64,000 nucleotides of DNA from Escherichia phage vB_EcoM-E33. This document shows positions 3,178-53,768 of the stretch, piece by piece. The stretch is taken from the sequence record OL780484.1; one strand, 5' to 3'. Made by a program: the position numbers and the translations under genes. The notes below the pieces were generated by a model that was not told the origin of the DNA, did no database searches, and was given only the letters and a program-made list of their open reading frames with translations. Within the stretch, counting starts at the first letter, position 1; each line of letters starts with the position of its first letter.

Positions 3178-6100
3178 TTATTCAATCCACTCAAACTTAA
3201 CGGATTTAGTGACCGGGTCAGGAATAATACGAACGTTACCAATACGTAACCAATCAAGGATTGTAATGTTACCCATTGTAGCGTTATCAGCAGGCAATGC
3301 ACCAACCTCTTCAGCAGAAGGAGGGTTATCTGCCGTATAGACCATAGAGAACGTAGTCCATGCGTTTTTATTTTTCTGCCAGGTACGTGTATAACGAATA
3401 GTACCACCATTCAGTCCTGTAGGATAGCACACCCAATCCTGATAACATGAATCCAATGTATTACCAAACTGAGTTAACGTACCAGGATATTTAACTTCCT
3501 TATCACGAACAGAATAATCAAACCAAGTACCACGTAATTTCTGACCTGATGTACCGAGAACCTCGTCACCAAAACTACCGTCTTCGTTACGATAACGAAT
3601 AGCCGGAGAACTAAATGCACCTGTTTCTGTTAACCAACCAGAAGCATTCCATATCTCGTCAGAAACACCGGCAGGTTTAGTTTGGACCGTATCAATATTA
3701 ACCTGACGTTTAGTTTTCATCGTCCAATAACCAGGGAACAGGTTAAATGTAGCCGAATCATCGATATCGACAGACCAGAAGCCAACGGTTTCTGCAGTAG
3801 GGGCCTGGGATGCTAATGTAGGTTTAACACCAACAGAACGGACGTATTTTTGAGCAACCAAACCATTATTTGCCGATACCTGCCCGGTGGAAACGATAGT
3901 ACCTGAAGTAGTTACGTTTTGCAACGAAGACAGAGCAGAAGCATTTAGTGTGGTTGTAGAAACACCGTTAGAAGTGGTTATACCTGTGATATTAGCATTC
4001 TTAGAAATACTAATGGAACCACTATTAACAGCAAAGTCACCAGTCGTATTAAAGGTCCAGTAGAAAGATTCTAAAGAACCCGGCGATGGAAGATAATGTA
4101 TTTTAAAATCACGAGTTCCGTCGTTTACAGTGCCTAAAGAGAATGTACCTTGCCCTAAACGTTGTTTAACAATAGGATGGAACTTGGCATCCGGGGTCGA
4201 ATTTATCTCGGCAAAAATCGGAGCTAAAGTATCACCTTGAGAGTTCCAAGTACCTGCACCAGATTGGGGTCCTACAAATTTAATAGATTTACCTGAGCTA
4301 ACAGATACATCATTTTTAAAAGTAGAATTTCCAGTTACTTCTAGAGAACCTAAAATAGTGTTGCCGGTAATATTAGCCGTACTAGAAGACACCAGAGGAG
4401 CGGCCAGGTTCAATTGTTTTGTCAACGTTAAAGAACCATTAACCGTTTGGTCAACGTCTCTACGAATGAACTGGAGTGAATCTAGGCCATCCAATTTCTC
4501 GGAGTTCACAGCCGTAGCATTTATAGGTAAAAAGTTCTGTAAAGTTTTATTCATCTCGTAAGATGAAACAGCATAACCTGTTTTAGGGTAGTTAGCTGCG
4601 TTCAGAACAGTATCGTCATTCTCATAAAGGCCTGTACCTGAGTTAAATTTAACACCAGAACCAGTAACTTTATTTCCTGAATAGGTTAAAGCACCTTCGG
4701 TTAGTTTAACAAATCCACGACGAAGTGCAGTAGCTTCCCAAGTGGTTTCAGTTTGTACTACATATTTTAAACCAGAAGGGCTTACAGCCAGAACTTTAGA
4801 AGTTCCTGCGGTTGTTTCGGTATTCGTTGCAACACGAATAATACCTTCAGAACTTTCAGTAGATTTTTTATAATGCAATTTCAAAGGAGTGATGATAGTT
4901 TTATCATCGGTACCAACGTTGACTTCGGTCTGGGTCGCCAGGCGAGCAGTACCACGTTGTGTCTCATTTGCTTCTCTAATATCTAGTGTATAATGGTTCC
5001 ATAAGGTTCCTGATTCAATCAAACCACTGGCTGCTGAGACAGAAGTTCTAGCAGTATCATTAAATCTTGTTTTAACTTTCAACGGAGTTGAAATAACATT
5101 ATCTAACGTACCAGCATCAAATTCTACCTGTGTTGCAATTCTAGCAATACCAGTCAATCCTTCCGTAGCTTTCCTATCATTTAACGTCTTAGGCGTTACC
5201 GCACGAGTATAATCTGTTCCAGTATCAGTTTCCTGTTGCGTAGCAATTTCAATTAACCCTGTACGAGTATCAAGGGCCACACGAGCATGTAATGTTTCCG
5301 GAGAAACAGCACTGTTGGCAAATCCACTTGCAGTTTGACCTGCGTTAACTTCAGATTGGTTAGAAAGATATACTGTACCCTGTTGAACTTGGGTAGCTTT
5401 ATACTGGTCGAGAGCTTTAGGAGAAATAACCAAATTGCCTACGTTCTTATTATAAACGTTAGTACCTACAGTGTCTCTAGCAGTCGCAGGAGTGGTTCCT
5501 ACAGTAGAGGTATATGTTACAATACCTGAAAGACTTTCCGAACCCTGGCGTGCTTGTAGCTTCTTAGGAGTGATGATTGTAGTATCATCTGTACCCGTGT
5601 TAGTTTCAACTTGCGTAGCAATTTCAGCAACACCACGGCGAGTTTCGGTTGCAGTACGTTCGTTTAATTTCTTAGGAGAAATAATCAAATCGTCCTGGAA
5701 TGCGAAGGTTGTGTCCTGGTTCACCTGAGCAGTAGTAGCAATACGAGCAATACCACGACGAGATTCAGTCGCTACACGATTAGCTAAAGTCTGTGGAGTA
5801 ATTGCAAGTTCTTTCTCAGGGTTATTTTCATGGTCAACGTTTGCCTGAGTCTGCGACGCAAGGGCAATAACACCTAAACGAGCACGAGTTAAATCATCTT
5901 TAGAATCTACACGTTCTATAGTAGGAACGTTCTGAGCAACAACCCAATATTTGCCACCTGTAGTGGTGTCTTCGATATAACTCAGTTCAATAACCGGAGT
6001 ATAACTTATATTGCCATTAAAGGTCAGTACGTCATTCAATACCCATTCGGTTTCTGGTGGATATTCTGAACGTTTAGGGAATTGAAGCAACTGGACGGAT

Positions 6101-7274: not shown

Positions 7275-7303
7275 GTTTACTTCTTCTAGGGTCGTGATAT
7301 AAT
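7275..7303 (+). promoter_or_regulatory. Early (sigma70-type) promoter for rnh
   Basis: GTTTAC, 17 bp spacer, TATAAT. Confidence 0.75.
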
Positions 7304-27871: not shown

Positions 27872-28021
27872 ATGTTTGTAGTTCATACAATTTCAGACTA
27901 TGGTCCTACCACTACAATGGATTATGGTCATGTAAACCAGTTTATTCGTCATGTGAATCATGATTACTCATTTGATGTAAATCCGGCTAAAGACCATCCT
28001 GTTTGGCGCGAATGCGTCTAA
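27872..28021 (+). CDS. Hypothetical small protein
   Basis: ATG 27872 directly after the HAD stop, RBS GAGG; ORF-track start 27839 is an overlapping extension. Confidence 0.35.
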   Translation: MFVVHTISDYGPTTTMDYGHVNQFIRHVNHDYSFDVNPAKDHPVWRECV

Positions 28022-28109
28022 CAGGGATTCATTTATGTCCACTTTATGTCCAAGTTCAAATCTGATGGGCGAATGAGATTTGTGTTCTCTTATCATAAGC
28101 GATTAGACT

Positions 28110-28135
28110 TGCTTTTGGCTGATGTGGCTTATAAT
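28110..28135 (+). promoter_or_regulatory. Putative middle promoter for DNA ligase
   Basis: TGCTT, 15 bp, TATAAT. Confidence 0.4.
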
Positions 28136-28160: not shown

Positions 28161-29687
28161 ATGATTTTAGATATTTTAAACGAAATTGCTGCTATTGATT
28201 CTACTAAAGCTAAAGAAGCCATTATTGCTCGTGAAAAGGACAATGAGCTTCTGAAACGTGTTTATCGTATGGCTTATACCCGTCGTCTGAACTACGGTAT
28301 TAAAAAGTGGCCAGAACCTGGATTTACATCTCAATCCTTTGGTATGATTACTCTTGAAGACCTTCTTGATTTCGCTGAATTCACATTAGCCACACGTAAG
28401 ATTACGGGTAATGCGGCTATTGAAGAACTGGCTCAAATCATTGCTGATGCCAAGGCCCCGGATGCCGAGGTATTACGTCGTGTAATGATGCGCGACCTTG
28501 AATGTGGTGCATCGATTTCTATTGCTAACAAGGTTTGGAAAGGTTTAATCCCTGAACAACCGCAGATGTTGGCGAGTTCTTATGATGAAGCTTTGATTAA
28601 GAAAAATATTAAATGGCCAGCGTTTGCTCAATTAAAAGCTGATGGTGCTCGTTGTTTTGCCGAAGTTCGTAACGATGGTGTGACATTCCTTACTCGTGGT
28701 GGTAACGAATATCAAGGGCTTAATCTTTTGGCGGCTGAATTAATGGCCATGACCGAAGAAGCTCGACAACGCCATCCTAATGGCGTTATGATTGATGGCG
28801 AATTAGTTTACCATACTCCTAAGGTAGAACCTAAAGCATCTAATGATTTGTTTAGTATGTTTGACGAGGAACTTCCTGAATTAAGTAAGGCTAAGGAATT
28901 CCAAACTGCCGCCGATCGTTCTACGTCAAATGGATTGGCTAATAAGGCTCTTCAAGGAACTATTTCGGCTACTGAAGCCGCTGGTATGGTATTACAGGCA
29001 TGGGATTATGTCCCACTGGATGTCGTGTATTCTGAAGGCAAAATTAAAGGCGATAAGTATGATGTACGCTTTACAGCCTTAGAACTTATGGTGGCTCATA
29101 ATGTCGTATTGCATGGTACAACGCGGGTTGAAGCTATCGAAAACCAGTGGGTTAATAATCTTGAAGAAGCTAAAGTCGTTTATAAGAAATATGTCGACCA
29201 GGGCCTGGAAGGTATTATCCTTAAGAACATGGACTCCTACTGGGAAAACCGCCGTTCTAAGAATCTTATCAAGTTCAAAGAAGTAATCGATATTGCTTTA
29301 GAAGTGGTGGGTTATTATGAACACTCGAAGGACCCTAACAAGCTAGGTGGTGTCGAGTTGGTATCACGTTGTCGTCGAATTACAAGCGACTGTGGTTCAG
29401 GCTTTAAAGATACCACCCATAAGAAAGATAAATCAGGTAAAAAAGTATTGATTCCATTGGAAGACCGTCCTGATTTAGACCGTGAACTTCTTATGAAACA
29501 AGCTCGTGAAGGTAAATTGATTGGCCGTATTGCCGACTGTGAATGTAATGGTTGGGTTCATTCTAAAGGACGTACCGATACTGTAGGTATTTTCCTTCCA
29601 ATTATTAAAGGTTGGCGTTTCGATAAAACAGAAGCTGATACATTTGAAGATGTATTCGGGTCGTGGGACCAAACAGGACTTAATTAA
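28161..29687 (+). CDS. 30: ATP-dependent DNA ligase (gene 30)
   Basis: Start at ATG 28161 (MILDILNEIAAID..., RBS GAGG); KADGAR adenylation motif; matches recalled T4 DNA ligase. Confidence 0.93.
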   Translation: MILDILNEIAAIDSTKAKEAIIAREKDNELLKRVYRMAYTRRLNYGIKKWPEPGFTSQSFGMITLEDLLDFAEFTLATRKITGNAAIEELAQIIADAKAPDAEVLRRVMMRDLECGASISIANKVWKGLIPEQPQMLASSYDEALIKKNIKWPAFAQLKADGARCFAEVRNDGVTFLTRGGNEYQGLNLLAAELMAMTEEARQRHPNGVMIDGELVYHTPKVEPKASNDLFSMFDEELPELSKAKEFQTAADRSTSNGLANKALQGTISATEAAGMVLQAWDYVPLDVVYSEGKIKGDKYDVRFTALELMVAHNVVLHGTTRVEAIENQWVNNLEEAKVVYKKYVDQGLEGIILKNMDSYWENRRSKNLIKFKEVIDIALEVVGYYEHSKDPNKLGGVELVSRCRRITSDCGSGFKDTTHKKDKSGKKVLIPLEDRPDLDRELLMKQAREGKLIGRIADCECNGWVHSKGRTDTVGIFLPIIKGWRFDKTEADTFEDVFGSWDQTGLN

Positions 29688-48193: not shown

Positions 48194-49201
48194 ATGTTCA
48201 AGAAATATAGCAGTCTCGAAAACCACTACAACAGTAAGTTTATCGAAAAACTCCGTACTAACGGTTTGACTGGTGGTGAATGGGTAGCACGTGAGAAGAT
48301 TCATGGAACCAACTTTAGTTTAATCATAGAACGTGACGCAGTCACATGCGCCAAGCGCACTGGCCCTATCCTCCCTGCTGAAGATTTCTATGGTTATGAA
48401 ATTGTACTTAAGAACTATGCTGATTCTATTAAATCTGTTCAACATCTAATCGAATCGATTAATTACCAGTCATATCAGATTTACGGCGAATTCGCTGGGA
48501 CAGGTATCCAGAAGAATGTGGACTACGGCGATAAAGACTTTTATGTGTTCGATATCCGAGTTACTAAAGAAGATGGCTCAGAATCTGTTCTAACCGATAC
48601 ATTGATGGAAGCCTTCTGTATTATCCATAAGTTTAAGGTAGCTCCATGTCTGGCCACTGGTAGCTTTGAAGACCTTATTAAACTTCCTAATGATTTTGAT
48701 TCAGTTGTTCCTGATTATAATTTTGCAGTGGATAACGCAGGCTTAACTATTGCAAACTCAACCGATTTTATTCCTAAGGTAGAAGGTAAGGTATTCACGG
48801 CTGAAGGCTTTGTATTGAAACCTGATGTTCCTACCTGGCTTCCAAACGGAAATCGTGTGGCGATTAAATGTAAGAACTCTAAATTCAGCGAGAAGAAAAA
48901 GTCTGATAAGCCTATTAAAGTTGCAGTGGTATTGTCCCAAGACGATATGGATTTGATGTGGCAATTCACCGATTATGTGACTGTTAACCGCATTAACAAT
49001 GTCATCAGTAAGATTGGCGAAGTATCGCCGAAGGATTTCGGAAAGGTGATGGGCTTGACAGTCCAGGATATCCTTGAAGAAGCCGCCCGTGAAGAATTGG
49101 AATTAACTGATGCGGAAAATCCCGTTGAAGTTAAAAAGCAGCTCGTTGAGTGCGTAAAAGAAACATTAAGACATGTATGGATTGAACTAGTATCCAAATA
49201 A
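48194..49201 (+). CDS. rnlB: RNA ligase 2
   Basis: 335 aa; N-terminus [20 protein letters not shown]...EKIHGTNFS (adenylated Lys motif) near-identical to recalled T4 Rnl2. Confidence 0.93.
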
Positions 49202-49209
49202 ACGATAAA

Positions 49210-49236
49210 GGGACCTTACGGTCCCTTTTATTTTTC
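49210..49236. terminator. Bidirectional terminator between rnlB and the gp24 paralog
   Basis: GGGACCttacGGTCCC followed by TTTTATTTTT. Confidence 0.8.
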
Positions 49237-50508
49237 TAAAGGCGGTAATTTTACGCCGAGATAAGAACTCAATTGACTTTGATTAGCCATTTTGTCCATA
49301 TCAGAACCATCAATAATGCGGGCTTCTTTATCGTCCTTAGCGACGGTATAAGGGTTTGCAGTCAATGCATAACGAGCAAGCAATGCTACTGTAGGTTGTA
49401 AGCTTTCCGGGTCAACAATAACCTTAAATTCACCAACTGAAGTATCACCTTCTTCGTCAACCACATTCAAACCTTCCGTATAAGGCGCATAATATAAAGA
49501 TGCGACCGTCTGTCCTTCACCCATCTGGGCATTTACACCAACAATAACATAATCACATGGACTATTCATATCAGCATAAAGTGGTAGGCCATTCTTTAAT
49601 ATACCATAAGCCAATTCGTCCTGGTCTTCCTTTTTCTCAACCCAACCAGAGGCGGCGAGAATAGCAGCACAACGAGAACTAGCTACTGCATAAGTCCCGG
49701 CAAAAGAAGTCTGTCGTTGGACGGCAGAGTTCATCTCACACATATAATAATATAATGTGCGAGCACGGTCCTGGGCATTATCGTAGCGAGGGTTGGTAAG
49801 GTCTAATACACCCTTTTCAGAAACACCCCGGACTTTAAAACGAGAGCTCACGGTAATTAATGACTGTAATACATCCTTATTAATTTCTTCTGCCATTTGA
49901 ATGCCTAGCAGATTTTCAACGAAATTAGGAGCATTAAACCCGTTAGATTCTAGGTCTTGGGCTAATTCGACTGTCAATGAAGTTTTCAGTTTACGTGATT
50001 TAACTTCAGATTGCCATTTGTCGATACGGAATCCGGTTTCAGCAATTTCAGGATGGCCTTGTTCAAATTTAGAAGTAATAGCAGCATCCGACACCATACG
50101 GATATGGCCGGCTGCCACTGCTTCAGAAATAACTTCGCTGAGGTTGGTTTCTGTGGTTCCGGCGAAAGGAGATGCTTCTAGAACTTTAAACACTACGCTT
50201 TCAAACTGGAACATATCACCGACCGCATAAGCTGTAGATGAATCAGTAAATTCTGGAATATTTTCACGTTCCGTCATACCAATCTGGCCCGCAAATGTTG
50301 CTCCACCAAGATAAGTCATTTTGTCGTCAGGATTCAGTACACGTACCCCATACAGAGCAGCAACCGGTTGATTTGTTTTTTGTTCAGCAACTAGGGCTTT
50401 AAAGATTCGTTTATTAGTTGCTTGGGTGTATGAAAGAAGAGCAGGACGGCCAACCGAGCTGGCAGCCGTCAATGTGGATTCTTTAATTAGGTCTACAATC
50501 TTAGACAT
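49228..50508 (-). CDS. Head vertex protein gp24 paralog (divergent second copy)
   Basis: 426 aa; same family as gp24/gp23 (LTVELAQDLESNGF, YYAPYTEGL, VAKDDKEARIIDGSDMDKMA); start overlaps stop of upstream gp24 by 1 nt. Confidence 0.85.
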   Translation of the reverse strand: MSKIVDLIKESTLTAASSVGRPALLSYTQATNKRIFKALVAEQKTNQPVAALYGVRVLNPDDKMTYLGGATFAGQIGMTERENIPEFTDSSTAYAVGDMFQFESVVFKVLEASPFAGTTETNLSEVISEAVAAGHIRMVSDAAITSKFEQGHPEIAETGFRIDKWQSEVKSRKLKTSLTVELAQDLESNGFNAPNFVENLLGIQMAEEINKDVLQSLITVSSRFKVRGVSEKGVLDLTNPRYDNAQDRARTLYYYMCEMNSAVQRQTSFAGTYAVASSRCAAILAASGWVEKKEDQDELAYGILKNGLPLYADMNSPCDYVIVGVNAQMGEGQTVASLYYAPYTEGLNVVDEEGDTSVGEFKVIVDPESLQPTVALLARYALTANPYTVAKDDKEARIIDGSDMDKMANQSQLSSYLGVKLPPLEK

Positions 50509-51791
50509 TAATCAGCCTCGTAAATAATTGCCGGAAGTTTAACGCCAACCAGATAAGACATATTGCTCTGTCCAGCCATTAAATCCATATTGGTTGCATC
50601 GATAACACGAGCTTCTTTATCGTCTTTAGCCACGGTGTACGGGTTAGCTGATAGTGCATAACGAACCATCAGAGAAATAGAAGGTTGTAATGAATCCGGG
50701 TCAACAATAACCTTATAAGCACCGACGTGTTCTTGGTCATCTAAATCTAAGCCTTCGGTATAGGGAGCGTAGAAAATAGAACCGACAACTTCATTACCGC
50801 CGTAATTCTCTTTAACACCAACGGTAACATAATCTAATGGACTGTTAACGTCACAAAACAGAGGCAGACCATTCAACAAATATCCGTATGCAGTTTCCGG
50901 AAGCCAATTATTATCTTCGGGTTTATGTTTTAACCAGCCAGAACCTGCAAGCATTGCAGCCACACGACTTGAAGCCACAACAAACGTGCCAGAATAAGAA
51001 GTAGTTTTCTGGATTTCAGAATTCATCTCACAAACGAGTTCATAAAGTTTACGTGCAGATTCAGGAGCACTGTCATAAGACAAATCGATGATGCCGTTAT
51101 CAGATACACCAGTAACTTTATAACGTTTGGATACGGTTATTAGAGATTGCAGAACGTCTTTATTAATTTCATCTGCCATTACTGTAGCCAAGAGGTCTTC
51201 TAAGAACGCCGGCGCGTCAAAGCCATTTGATTCCATATCCTGCGCTAATTCTACAGTCAAAGCCGTCTTCAATTTACGGGTCTTAACCGGAGCATTCCAT
51301 TTATTAACCTGGAATACAGCATCAGAGATTTCTACATCACTCGCTTCAAATTTAGTGGTATGGGCAGCATCAGGAACCAGACGACATGTTAATGACACTA
51401 AACCTTCTTGAAGAGCATCAGCCAATTCTGTGGCGCTAGTGGACGCGAGTGGGCTTGCTTTAAGAGCCTTATAAACCACATTCTGGTACTTGAAATATTC
51501 ACCCTGAGCAATCGCCTGGGCCTTATCTGTGAGTTCTGGGATAGTTTCACGGTCTTTAGAACCAACTTCACCACCATAAGAGGCACCTGTCTGGAAACTA
51601 AATTCATTATCAGGGGTAAGATATTTGACACCATACAGTGCAGCAATAGGCTGGCTAGTACGTTGTTCGGCGATAATATCACGGTAAATCAATTTGGTTG
51701 TAGCACGGGTCAAAGCAACAAGATTAGGGCGACCCAATGAGTTGCTGGAAGTAGTTGTTGACTCGCGCAGTAATTCGTTAATCTTTGCCAT
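50508..51791 (-). CDS. 24: Head vertex protein gp24
   Basis: 427 aa, MAKINELLRESTTTSSNSLGRPNLVALTRATTKLIY... near-identical to recalled T4 gp24. Confidence 0.92.
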   Translation of the reverse strand: MAKINELLRESTTTSSNSLGRPNLVALTRATTKLIYRDIIAEQRTSQPIAALYGVKYLTPDNEFSFQTGASYGGEVGSKDRETIPELTDKAQAIAQGEYFKYQNVVYKALKASPLASTSATELADALQEGLVSLTCRLVPDAAHTTKFEASDVEISDAVFQVNKWNAPVKTRKLKTALTVELAQDMESNGFDAPAFLEDLLATVMADEINKDVLQSLITVSKRYKVTGVSDNGIIDLSYDSAPESARKLYELVCEMNSEIQKTTSYSGTFVVASSRVAAMLAGSGWLKHKPEDNNWLPETAYGYLLNGLPLFCDVNSPLDYVTVGVKENYGGNEVVGSIFYAPYTEGLDLDDQEHVGAYKVIVDPDSLQPSISLMVRYALSANPYTVAKDDKEARVIDATNMDLMAGQSNMSYLVGVKLPAIIYEAD

Positions 51792-51819
51792 TGCGCTTTC
51801 CTTATTGAGGGTATATGTT

Positions 51820-51827
51820 TATTTATA
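51820..51827 (-). promoter_or_regulatory. Late promoter for gene 24
   Basis: Minus-strand TATAAATA 29 nt upstream of the gene 24 ATG. Confidence 0.7.
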
Positions 51828-51833
51828 AAAGTT

Positions 51834-51863
51834 GTTTACAGCAAGATTCTCACATGTTACTAT
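51834..51863 (+). promoter_or_regulatory. Early promoter reading antisense to the late capsid block
   Basis: GTTTAC, 18 bp, TACTAT. Confidence 0.7.
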
Positions 51864-51892
51864 AGACATATCAAAACATGAGGAGATTAAAA

Positions 51893-52159
51893 ATGAACAA
51901 GTTAAACTTTATTCGTACTACTCTTTCCGCTCTTGATAAAGACATCAAAGCTCTGGTAGAAAAATTCGGTAACAATCCTAATGGTAATGCAGTGAATGCC
52001 TTAGTTAAGAAATACGAAGCCATGGCTTATGCTACCGACTTCTGGTGGAACGGTGAATACTCTACCCATACCAAAGACAAATCTGGTAACTGGCTGAAAA
52101 TCCAAGAAAATCGTATTGACTTCCGTGATATCATCAACCGCCGAGTTAAGATTGCATAA
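51893..52159 (+). CDS. Hypothetical early protein encoded antisense to the late capsid block
   Basis: ATG 51893 with RBS GAGGAG behind an early promoter; lies where T4 has segD (as I recall) but shows no endonuclease motifs. Confidence 0.55.
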   Translation: MNKLNFIRTTLSALDKDIKALVEKFGNNPNGNAVNALVKKYEAMAYATDFWWNGEYSTHTKDKSGNWLKIQENRIDFRDIINRRVKIA

Positions 52160-52174
52160 TACAGAAACAAGAAT

Positions 52175-52192
52175 GGGAGACCGAAGTCTCCC
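52175..52192. terminator. Terminator hairpin between the 51893 ORF and gene 23
   Basis: GGGAGACcgaaGTCTCCC; on the minus strand the loop reads UUCG and a T-rich run follows. Confidence 0.7.
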
Positions 52193-52208
52193 ATAATAAG
52201 GTTATATC

Positions 52209-53768
52209 TTAGATACCTTTAACATATACGCGACGGAAGTAACCATTCAGACCAAGGCTGTTAACGATGTCAGGCATACCATTCTGGATACGTTTGGTAG
52301 GAGCCTGAGCAGCAGGGTCAGCGAACGGGTTGATACCGATACCGTAACGAGTTTTGAAGCCCATTACCGGTTGGAAGTTCTTCGGATCGGAACCACGCAG
52401 CGGGGTCAGTGCAACGTACGGAGCATAGTAGATACCTGCGTCCATTTCGTTAGCGCCTTTATAACCGATGGTGAAGTAATCGGAACGTGCATACTGGTCG
52501 ATGTAAACGCGATATTTACCACCAAGAACACCGGCAAATACTGCTTTGGTTGTGTCAACGTTGAAACCTTGACCCAGACCTTGAGCTGCATAACTTACAG
52601 AAGTATCAACTGCAGCCAGTACGTTAACTACGTTACGGGAAGCGATGATGAAGTTACCAGCACCACGACCGGTCTGACGAGCGATTTCGGCTGCTTCTTT
52701 ATCAATCTGGAACAGAAGGGCTTTAAAGCTCTCACCGGCCCAACGAGCACCACGGATATCAATCGGGTCCTGGAAGTCAAACACACCAGCTTTAGCGCCA
52801 ACGGTGTTGGTCATACCAGATTTACCAACCTGTGCAGAGTAGTTAATCCAATCGATAACTTCACGGTTGATTTCGAGCATAATTTCGGTAGCAAGGATAC
52901 CGGACAGTTCAGCATCTGCATCCATACCGTGTACTGCACGAAGGTCCTGTGCCAGTTCGATAGAGTAGCTTGCTTTCAGCTGACGGGATTTAGCTTCGAT
53001 AACTTGTTTGTCGATGCGGAAGCCCATTTCGTTCCACGGGTTATCGGTAGAACCGTTAAAGCCTTCCTGAAGTTCGGCGATAGAAGTAGCCATACCTTCA
53101 GCCAATTCAGCCAACTTACCAGCTTCAATCAAAGCGGTAACAGCAGCATCCAGTTTAGCGGCATCAGTAGCAGCAGCATCAACGGTTACGGCTTCAACAG
53201 CCTGGAAGTGTGCAGCACCGGTAGCTTCGAAGAAGTGAGAATAAATTTTACCAACTTCCAGAACTTTGCTTGCCGCCAGTGCTTCGAAAGTTTCAGCAGC
53301 ACCCTGACCAGAGAACATAGCGTCTGGAGAATACATCGGATGGAAAGCTTCTTTAGCGCCAGAAGCGATAGGGTCTTTACCATAAACTGCACGAAGGGCA
53401 AATACCTGGCCGGTAGGGTTATTCAGAGGCTGAACACCACAAATATCAAAAGCAATCAGATGAGGAATAGCACGACGAACCATACCCATTACTGCCGGCC
53501 CAATCTGAGTTACAGCACCAGAAGTCTGGCCAGCTGCGATATTGGTAGCATCATAACCGTGGTCACCACCAATTTCAGCTTCGGTCAGGAAAGAACCAAA
53601 TGCTTCAGAGATTTTTTCATCACGATATTCCGGAGCAGTCAGGATGTCTTGTTCCTGGTTTTCGAAAATTTTAGCGATGATAGCTTGTTTAGAAGCACCC
53701 ACGATTTCAGGAAGGGCTTCGTTTTCCAGCAGAGCGGACCATTTTTGAACTAATGCATTCTTTTTCAT
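52209..53768 (-). CDS. 23: Major capsid protein gp23
   Basis: 519 aa; long near-identical stretches to recalled T4 gp23 (AEIGGDHGYDATNIAAGQTSGAVTQIGPAVMGMVRRAIP...). Confidence 0.97.
   Translation of the reverse strand: MKKNALVQKWSALLENEALPEIVGASKQAIIAKIFENQEQDILTAPEYRDEKISEAFGSFLTEAEIGGDHGYDATNIAAGQTSGAVTQIGPAVMGMVRRAIPHLIAFDICGVQPLNNPTGQVFALRAVYGKDPIASGAKEAFHPMYSPDAMFSGQGAAETFEALAASKVLEVGKIYSHFFEATGAAHFQAVEAVTVDAAATDAAKLDAAVTALIEAGKLAELAEGMATSIAELQEGFNGSTDNPWNEMGFRIDKQVIEAKSRQLKASYSIELAQDLRAVHGMDADAELSGILATEIMLEINREVIDWINYSAQVGKSGMTNTVGAKAGVFDFQDPIDIRGARWAGESFKALLFQIDKEAAEIARQTGRGAGNFIIASRNVVNVLAAVDTSVSYAAQGLGQGFNVDTTKAVFAGVLGGKYRVYIDQYARSDYFTIGYKGANEMDAGIYYAPYVALTPLRGSDPKNFQPVMGFKTRYGIGINPFADPAAQAPTKRIQNGMPDIVNSLGLNGYFRRVYVKGI

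Follow-up and report, generated by a model that had tools for sequence, protein, structure and literature searches.

The closest described counterpart of the locus analysed here, which lies in a 64,000-nt stretch of Escherichia phage vB_EcoM-E33 (OL780484.1; hereafter the window), is found in phage RB69, for which Nolan et al. (2006) predicted an early promoter on the minus strand (Pe:109605, score 29.9) directly upstream of ORF189c/188c, a late promoter for gene 24 (Pl:109573) and a terminator named '23-><-RB69ORF188c' (PMC1524935). The early promoter was called with an HMM, independently of the present analysis, and the terminator of gene 23 was predicted in six of the six genomes compared (PMC1524935). 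The arrangement of promoter, ORF and terminator is thus already known, having been predicted for RB69 in 2006, and the gene, annotated as hypothetical in each genome that carries it, is largely ordinary. RB69ORF188c/189c, JS98 orf173 and F392_gp010 of phage Bp7 share with the 88-aa ORF of the window the family, the slot, the antisense orientation and the layout of promoter and terminator, and differ from it nowhere substantively: the RB69 copy is split by two frameshifts, and the Bp7 start is placed five codons earlier.

A second described system occupies the same junction in T4. There, segD, a free-standing GIY-YIG homing endonuclease gene, lies antisense, flanked by the gene 24 late promoter and the gene 23 terminator hairpin; it is the one T4 endonuclease gene antisense to its neighbours, and a 2010 review reported that no segD promoter had been identified (PMC2988022). 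The sequence ahead of segD can be aligned with the early promoter of the window, but the cargo is unrelated. An initial annotation of the window had described the small protein as unrelated to the endonuclease, and this holds: comparison with IME08 SegD by hhalign gives a probability of 0.5%, and the 88-aa protein contains no GIY-YIG or other nuclease motif and matches no Pfam nuclease. Small early-strand genes inside a late structural block have a further precedent in T4 repEB and repEA, antisense in late gene 5 (T4 locus 27981-28118 and 29085-29237), although these overlap coding sequence of gene 5 and are linked to the replication origin oriE, whereas the ORF of the window is intergenic. 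No T4 ORF, repEA and repEB included, resembles the 88-aa ORF in sequence (family-profile hmmsearch of all stop-to-stop T4 ORFs; best E 0.12). Morons, in the concept of Juhala and Hendrix, are autonomous units of promoter, gene and terminator that have been inserted where conserved phage genes adjoin; they were defined on temperate phages, whose prophages express them. The cassette described here is moron-like in its presence or absence among collinear genomes, its own promoter, its position between structural genes, its dispensability and its apparent movement between genera. It is unlike a moron in that it resides in a virulent phage, has an early lytic promoter and apparently no dedicated terminator, and does not stand out in base composition.

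In a megablast search, the region 51700-52300 of the window aligns along its whole length with Escherichia phages Bp7, QL01, FB and others (99.8% identity); JS98 reaches 96.5%. By this near-identity to Bp7, QL01 and FB, the phage is assigned to Dhakavirus, the JS98/Bp7-type group of T4-like phages. Leftmost in the neighbourhood is rnlB (48194-49201, plus strand), which has the same place in the Bp7 annotation. It is followed by a tandem gene 24 pair on the minus strand, also annotated in Bp7, whose distal member is gp24b (49228-50508; PF07068) and whose proximal member, gene 24a, encodes the capsid vertex protein (50508-51791; PF07068 Gp23 family, E 2.9e-98; 'head vertex protein' in Bp7). Gene 23, for the major capsid protein, lies beyond the small ORF on the minus strand (52209-53768; PF07068, E 2.1e-122; Bp7 annotation). 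The Bp7 record lists these genes in an identical order and on the same strands, with rnlB, the gp24 tandem, the opposite-strand 'hypothetical protein' F392_gp010, gp23, gp22, and gp21 onward. The late block, which extends over more than 14 kb up to the end of the window, is carried entirely on the minus strand save for the 88-aa ORF, the sole plus-strand gene in it. A small gene antisense within the late capsid block, between genes 24 and 23, had been described in the initial annotation, and it is found exactly where it had been placed. The two copies of gene 24, each with a match to PF07068, share 55.5% identity; the duplication is also present in JS98, IME08, VR26 and Kosakonia phage 305, and absent from T4, RB69/JS09, KP179 and CBH8.

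Two promoters stand back to back on the gene 24 side of the junction. The T4-type late promoter of gene 24a is the box TATAAATA on the minus strand (51820-51827; TATTTATA in plus-strand letters), placed 29 nt ahead of the start codon of gene 24a (ATG at 51791) and invariant in nine of nine aligned phages, T2 with its empty slot among them. Pointing the other way, an early-class sigma-70 promoter occupies 51834-51863 on the plus strand and is composed of GTTTAC (51834-51839), a 15-nt spacer, TGT (51855-51857) and TACTAT (51858-51863); a generic promoter scan reads the same stretch as TTTACA-17-TACTAT with an extended -10 TG. Since a generic sigma-70 match says little in A/T-rich DNA, a phage-specific form of the motif was tested instead. 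The pattern GTTTAC-N14-16-TGnTAnnnT occurs nine times in the 64-kb window, always on the plus strand, against 0.18 occurrences expected from shuffled sequence, a 50-fold enrichment. On the strength of these nine same-strand matches, the site at 51834-51863 is judged to belong to a real, strand-specific promoter class and not to be a chance match. The other eight matches, at 7275, 10543, 11254, 11543, 18775, 22028, 36020 and 47811 of the plus strand, several of them with a TACTAT -10 element, provide a list of candidate early promoters for this phage.

The T4 early-promoter signature consists of GTTTAC at -36 to -31, an A-rich upstream stretch and TGn (PMC1524935; PMC2988021), and the site at 51834-51863 agrees with this consensus in its GTTTAC, TGn, -10 element and A-rich upstream sequence. 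In the alignment, GTTGTTTACA is kept in five of the six other cargo-bearing phages, with variants in metagenomic L011 and T4, and is missing in T2. The TGnTAnTAT box likewise holds its position across genera in most of the cargo-bearing phages aligned, and is absent from empty-slot T2. Counted from the early promoter, the A/T-rich stretch of the late box covers about -43 to -50, where an UP element would lie, and may act as one. Transcription from the early promoter is predicted to start near 51870, about 7 nt past 51863, and to head rightward; the late transcript of gene 24 is predicted to start on the minus strand, a few nucleotides past the TATAAATA box (51827-51820), and to head leftward. 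The two promoters are divergent and their transcripts do not overlap; no early transcript from this promoter can thus run antisense to the leader of gene 24, and the earlier proposal to that effect fails. The two other promoter assignments made with it stand: the elements of a canonical early promoter are in place at 51834-51863 and backed by the motif enrichment (nine against 0.18), and the gene 24 late promoter does lie back to back with it at 51820-51827. Antisense transcription is instead possible where late read-through from gene 23 crosses the small gene, or where early read-through of the hairpin enters gene 23.

A Shine-Dalgarno (SD) site, GAGGAG (51880-51885, plus strand), precedes the ATG at 51893 by 7 nt, and an SD of the GGAG type is kept at the homologous loci in the alignment. 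The ORF extends from 51893 to 52159 on the plus strand (stop codon 52157-52159) and encodes a protein of 88 residues, 10.2 kDa and pI 9.6, a member of phrog_6003 together with Bp7 F392_gp010, JS98 orf173 and RB69ORF188c+189c. In the Bp7 annotation the gene begins at the in-frame ATG 51878, which adds five codons (93 aa) and lacks an SD, whereas the JS98 annotation uses the 88-aa start. The later start, at 51893, is the better choice because 51878 has no SD and because, in the Mosigvirus homologue, a stop codon closes the region equivalent to the extension. The protein is 100% identical to those of Bp7 and QL01.

Sequence divergence among the homologues points to selection on the protein. By the Nei-Gojobori method (NG86), dN/dS is 0.03-0.13 among Dhakavirus-type copies, that of JE01 included, and 0.09-0.11 against Gaprivervirus VR26. 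These values show a true gene under purifying selection, and the ORF at 51893-52159 proposed in the initial annotation is borne out, with SD, ATG and stop in place and dN/dS of about 0.1. In comparisons with JS98 and IME08, dS is 0.14-0.23 for the small ORF, 0.10-0.13 for gp23 and 0.55-0.66 for gp24a. The value for the small ORF does not fall below the range of the flanking genes, which argues against an extra constraint at the RNA level, and the step from gp23 through the small ORF to gp24a suggests a recombination or mosaic boundary at or near the back-to-back promoters. The G+C content of the ORF (39.0%) equals the average of the window (40.0%), and the composition gives no hint that the gene arrived recently from a foreign source.

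The gene 23 side of the cassette is formed by a 9-bp G+C-rich hairpin (52173-52194, readable on both strands), 13 nt past the stop codon of the small ORF. Folding of a 61-nt stretch gives -16.4 kcal/mol on the plus strand (z = -4.4) and -17.3 kcal/mol on the minus strand (z = -3.6). A UUCG loop followed by a U-rich tail is present on the minus strand, that of gene 23, only; the plus strand continues with AAUAAGG. From these features the hairpin is clearly recognisable as the intrinsic terminator of gene 23, and it is only possibly a terminator of the small gene too. The initial annotation had assigned it both functions; the gene 23 part stands, with its U-tail, and the small-gene part is not supported, for want of a U-tail on the plus strand. 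The corresponding hairpin of VR26 has T-runs on both sides, unlike that of Dhakavirus, where the U-tail is confined to the minus strand. An Rfam scan of the region returned nothing meaningful, with a best E of 0.17 for the hairpin alone. A 12-nt inverted repeat of 83% complementarity (51800-51811 and 52190-52201) flanks the cassette, one arm lying in the gene 24 leader and the other overlapping the hairpin; it is probably due to chance.

The protein matches the phrog_6003 family HMM with an E of 6.8e-50, residues 1-88 aligning to profile positions 1-88 of 90, and every source that annotates members of the family calls them 'hypothetical'. A tblastn search places it in 237 phage records, and intact copies occur in more than 230 phage records from three genera and from rV5-like phages. 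All T4-type carriers (Bp7, JS98, IME08, VR26, JS09, RB69, JE01 and metagenomic L011/L012) have it at the 23/24 junction in antisense orientation. Identity falls to about 62-65% in Gaprivervirus VR26 and about 33-36% in Mosigvirus JS09, a divergence between genera far above that of gp23 (62% for the small protein against 97% for gp23 in VR26; 33% against 84% in JS09). The rV5-like myoviruses, with genomes of 145-150 kb, also carry homologues (about 40% identity), which are not next to capsid genes and lie in long arrays of small same-strand ORFs without Pfam match, so that the protein is common to two unrelated lineages of phages infecting enterobacteria. No paralogue was found among all stop-to-stop ORFs of the window by hmmsearch with the family profile. 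A profile search of 1.84 billion representative proteins gave ten matches that reduce to about six genuine clusters; the four discarded were three large repeat proteins and one product of a chimeric contig. One entry, P0024 (160 aa), joins an exact 30-residue stretch of the family to unrelated sequence and is probably a chimeric assembly, and a family member, P0013, bears the spurious JGI name 'NADPH-dependent curcumin reductase CurA'. An apparent divergence of the C-terminal 16 residues in segD carriers, where tblastn covered residues 1-72, is an alignment artefact, as the IME08 protein is full-length and near-identical.

Comparison of the 23/24 junction across T-even phages reveals a slot that exists in five natural states. 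It is empty in T2, where the late promoter of gene 24 adjoins the gene 23 hairpin and there is no early promoter; the junction is equally short, with nothing annotated in it, in most Tequatroviruses, in Jiaodavirus KP179, in Kanagawavirus 305 (a Kosakonia phage) and in Winklervirus CBH8. In the second state, represented by Dhakaviruses dhaeg (MN850609, locus positions 425-495) and dhabil (MN850621), only the promoter is present: the dhaeg sequence reads as an early promoter fused to the gene 23 hairpin, a clean deletion equivalent to 51866-52159 of the window, and a similar short match suggests a like deletion in dhabil. The third state, promoter and ORF, is that of the window and the commonest among carriers. 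In the fourth, found in 38 Dhakavirus records, segD follows the promoter and ORF; in IME08, segD, for which there is no separate SD, begins 4 nt past the stop codon of the ORF and is followed by the same hairpin. The fifth, a promoter-like site and segD, is found in T4 and 52 other records. In T4 the site upstream of segD (NC_000866, locus 5254-5282, minus strand; about 107,250-107,285 in T4 coordinates) reads TTTACA-17-TATTAT with TGn, a 10/12 match, and is 66% similar to the promoter of the window, a similarity equal to that of the VR26 and JS09 promoters. The GGAG...AAAATGAA context that follows it resembles the translation start of the small ORF. The SegD proteins of IME08 and T4 are 56% identical and represent orthologues in one slot, and the T4 layout may derive from the state with ORF and segD by loss of the small ORF.

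This distribution supports the view that, by comparison with other T-even phages, the cassette has the character of an insertion, because the slot is empty in T2 and three other genera, holds segD alone in T4 and holds both ORF and segD in 38 records. The step in dS across the slot points the same way. Transfer of the cassette between genera is evidenced by Tequatrovirus vB_EcoM_JE01 (locus positions 430-800), which carries a Dhakavirus-type cassette of promoter, ORF and hairpin between 23/24 flanks that match T4 at about 94%. Of what had been proposed at the outset, the insertion of a gene into the capsid block is consistent with the empty junctions of T2, KP179, 305 and CBH8, and the placing of a homing-endonuclease gene at this junction in T4 is correct, the gene being segD, in the same antisense orientation. 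The implication that the ORF replaces the endonuclease in the slot fails, since the two are not alternatives: 38 records carry both. The RB69 reference (NC_004928, locus positions 292-532) differs from the intact copy of JS09 by two frameshifts and is annotated as ORF189c and ORF188c; either a real decay of the laboratory strain or sequencing error would account for them. The deletions in dhaeg and dhabil and the frameshifted copy of RB69 show that the 88-aa gene is dispensable in nature.

No relative of known function was found for the protein. Searches of Pfam, with the one sequence and with all 12 members of the family, and of NCBIfam and PADLOC gave nothing above noise; DUF5380 matched below threshold (E 0.075-0.11) in three of the 12 members, all of the Dhakavirus-type clade, and was rejected. 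A profile search of the PDB returned nothing below E 0.43, and a Foldseek comparison of the model with the PDB nothing below E 1; neither sequence nor fold resembles the characterised phage effectors of anti-defence or host takeover. A homology search had been suggested in the initial annotation as a check on the small gene, and it leaves the protein without a homologue of known function. A literature search on ORF188c, orf173 and phrog_6003 and on segD transcriptomics found nothing on this gene. An AlphaFold2 model built from a 12-sequence alignment has a pLDDT of 91.7 and is composed of two helices (residues 3-25 and 31-48), a beta hairpin (52-61/67-71) and a third helix (77-87). A member of 40% identity has a BFVD model, obtained independently, and the two structures superpose at a TM of 0.91. 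The protein is small, hydrophilic and basic, with a pI of 9.5-9.8 in every clade. Its only invariant polar residues are K3, N30, G31, N32, N35 and Q71, an N-G-N-x-x-N turn among them, and all other invariant positions belong to the hydrophobic core; judged from the alignment, this set is not a catalytic constellation.

The best explanation of the locus, which we regard as probable, is an early cassette for a host-binding accessory protein. A self-contained unit of about 330 bp, comprising a sigma-70 promoter, an SD and 88 codons, is lodged there, with the late promoter of gene 24 on one side and the hairpin of gene 23 on the other. From the class of the promoter, host RNA polymerase would use it immediately upon infection and transcribe to the right, leaving gene 24 behind, and the short monocistronic mRNA would end at the gene 23 hairpin or read through it. 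Late in infection, transcription of gene 23 would converge on the cassette, any read-through covering the small gene in antisense. The product is a basic 10-kDa alpha/beta protein that diverges fast under purifying selection and has no catalytic motif. It would presumably act by binding, as a conditional accessory factor on a host macromolecule; the gene is expendable for plaque formation on laboratory E. coli. The layout of the cassette may further have provided a landing pad and an expression platform for segD. The narrower proposal, that the protein binds a host macromolecule in host takeover or counter-defence in Enterobacteriaceae, draws on the analogy with small early T-even ORFs and on the missing enzymatic motif, and we give it about an even chance. 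The arrays of small ORFs around the rV5-like homologues, the fast divergence and the basic pI in all clades are counted in favour of a host-directed role.

The conserved basic charge fits a small nucleic-acid-binding regulator of phage expression equally well, one acting for instance on genes 23 and 24 or on other phage messages, and this is the main rival to the host binder. The pI of 9.5-9.8 in all clades, the compact helical fold with its beta hairpin and the position between genes 23 and 24 in all T4-type carriers agree with such a regulator. It is nevertheless unlikely, given that the rV5-like homologue does not lie beside capsid genes, that most T-even genera build the same capsid with the slot empty and that natural deletion mutants are viable. 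A tie to SegD, with the small protein as its helper, regulator or immunity partner, or with the gene retained as a 'host gene' that supplies a promoter and translational coupling, would account for the 38 records in which segD follows the ORF by 4 nt without an SD of its own, for the homologous promoter and TIR-like sequence ahead of T4 segD, and for the 56%-identical IME08 and T4 orthologues in the same slot. Most carriers, however (Bp7, JS98, Mosig- and Gaprivervirus, the rV5-like phages), have no adjacent endonuclease, T4 has segD without the ORF, and purifying selection acts on the ORF in segD-less genomes as well. The platform layout is real, yet it leaves the conservation of the protein itself unexplained, and a functional tie of this kind is still less probable than a regulatory role.

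Two further readings would take the protein out of the explanation altogether. If the functional product were an RNA, antisense to gene 23 or to read-through from 23 to 24, and the ORF incidental, then the lack of a plus-strand U-tail, which makes read-through into antisense of gene 23 plausible, and the position as the lone plus-strand gene of a late block exceeding 14 kb would both fall into place. Against it, a dN/dS of about 0.1 with abundant synonymous change indicates selection on protein, the strong SD is conserved, the family also occurs in contexts that are not antisense, and the best Rfam match (E 0.17) concerns the hairpin only. Since dhaeg keeps promoter and hairpin and loses the ORF, the sequence of the ORF would not be needed for an RNA role, although the promoter alone might have one. 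We consider an RNA product very improbable. A chance ORF or decaying remnant, to which the frameshifts of the RB69 reference and the deletions in dhaeg and dhabil would lend themselves, is effectively refuted by the intact copies in more than 230 records from three genera and the rV5-like phages, by the low dN/dS and by the confident compact fold with its BFVD superposition (TM 0.91).

As a locus already annotated in its main features, the cassette changes phage biology little; what is added, and is minor, is a comparison of the slot across phages and the promoter-like site ahead of T4 segD. The promoter homologue found there is relevant to the report that segD lacks an identified promoter, and the 23/24 junction, as a defined variable slot with five natural states, lends itself to the study of how late operons acquire accessory genes and homing endonucleases. 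The combination of a confident fold without relatives and a natural dispensability makes the 88-aa protein an easy candidate for anti-defence and host-takeover screens. A more far-reaching view, which we hold to be doubtful, is that the protein founds a new fold family of host-directed effectors, such as inhibitors of a defence system of Enterobacteriaceae or of some host machine associated with nucleic acid, swapped between T4-like and rV5-like coliphages on a mobile early cassette that also served as the ancestral platform for expressing segD. If true, it would explain how T4 segD is expressed when, according to the 2010 review, no promoter of its own had been identified.
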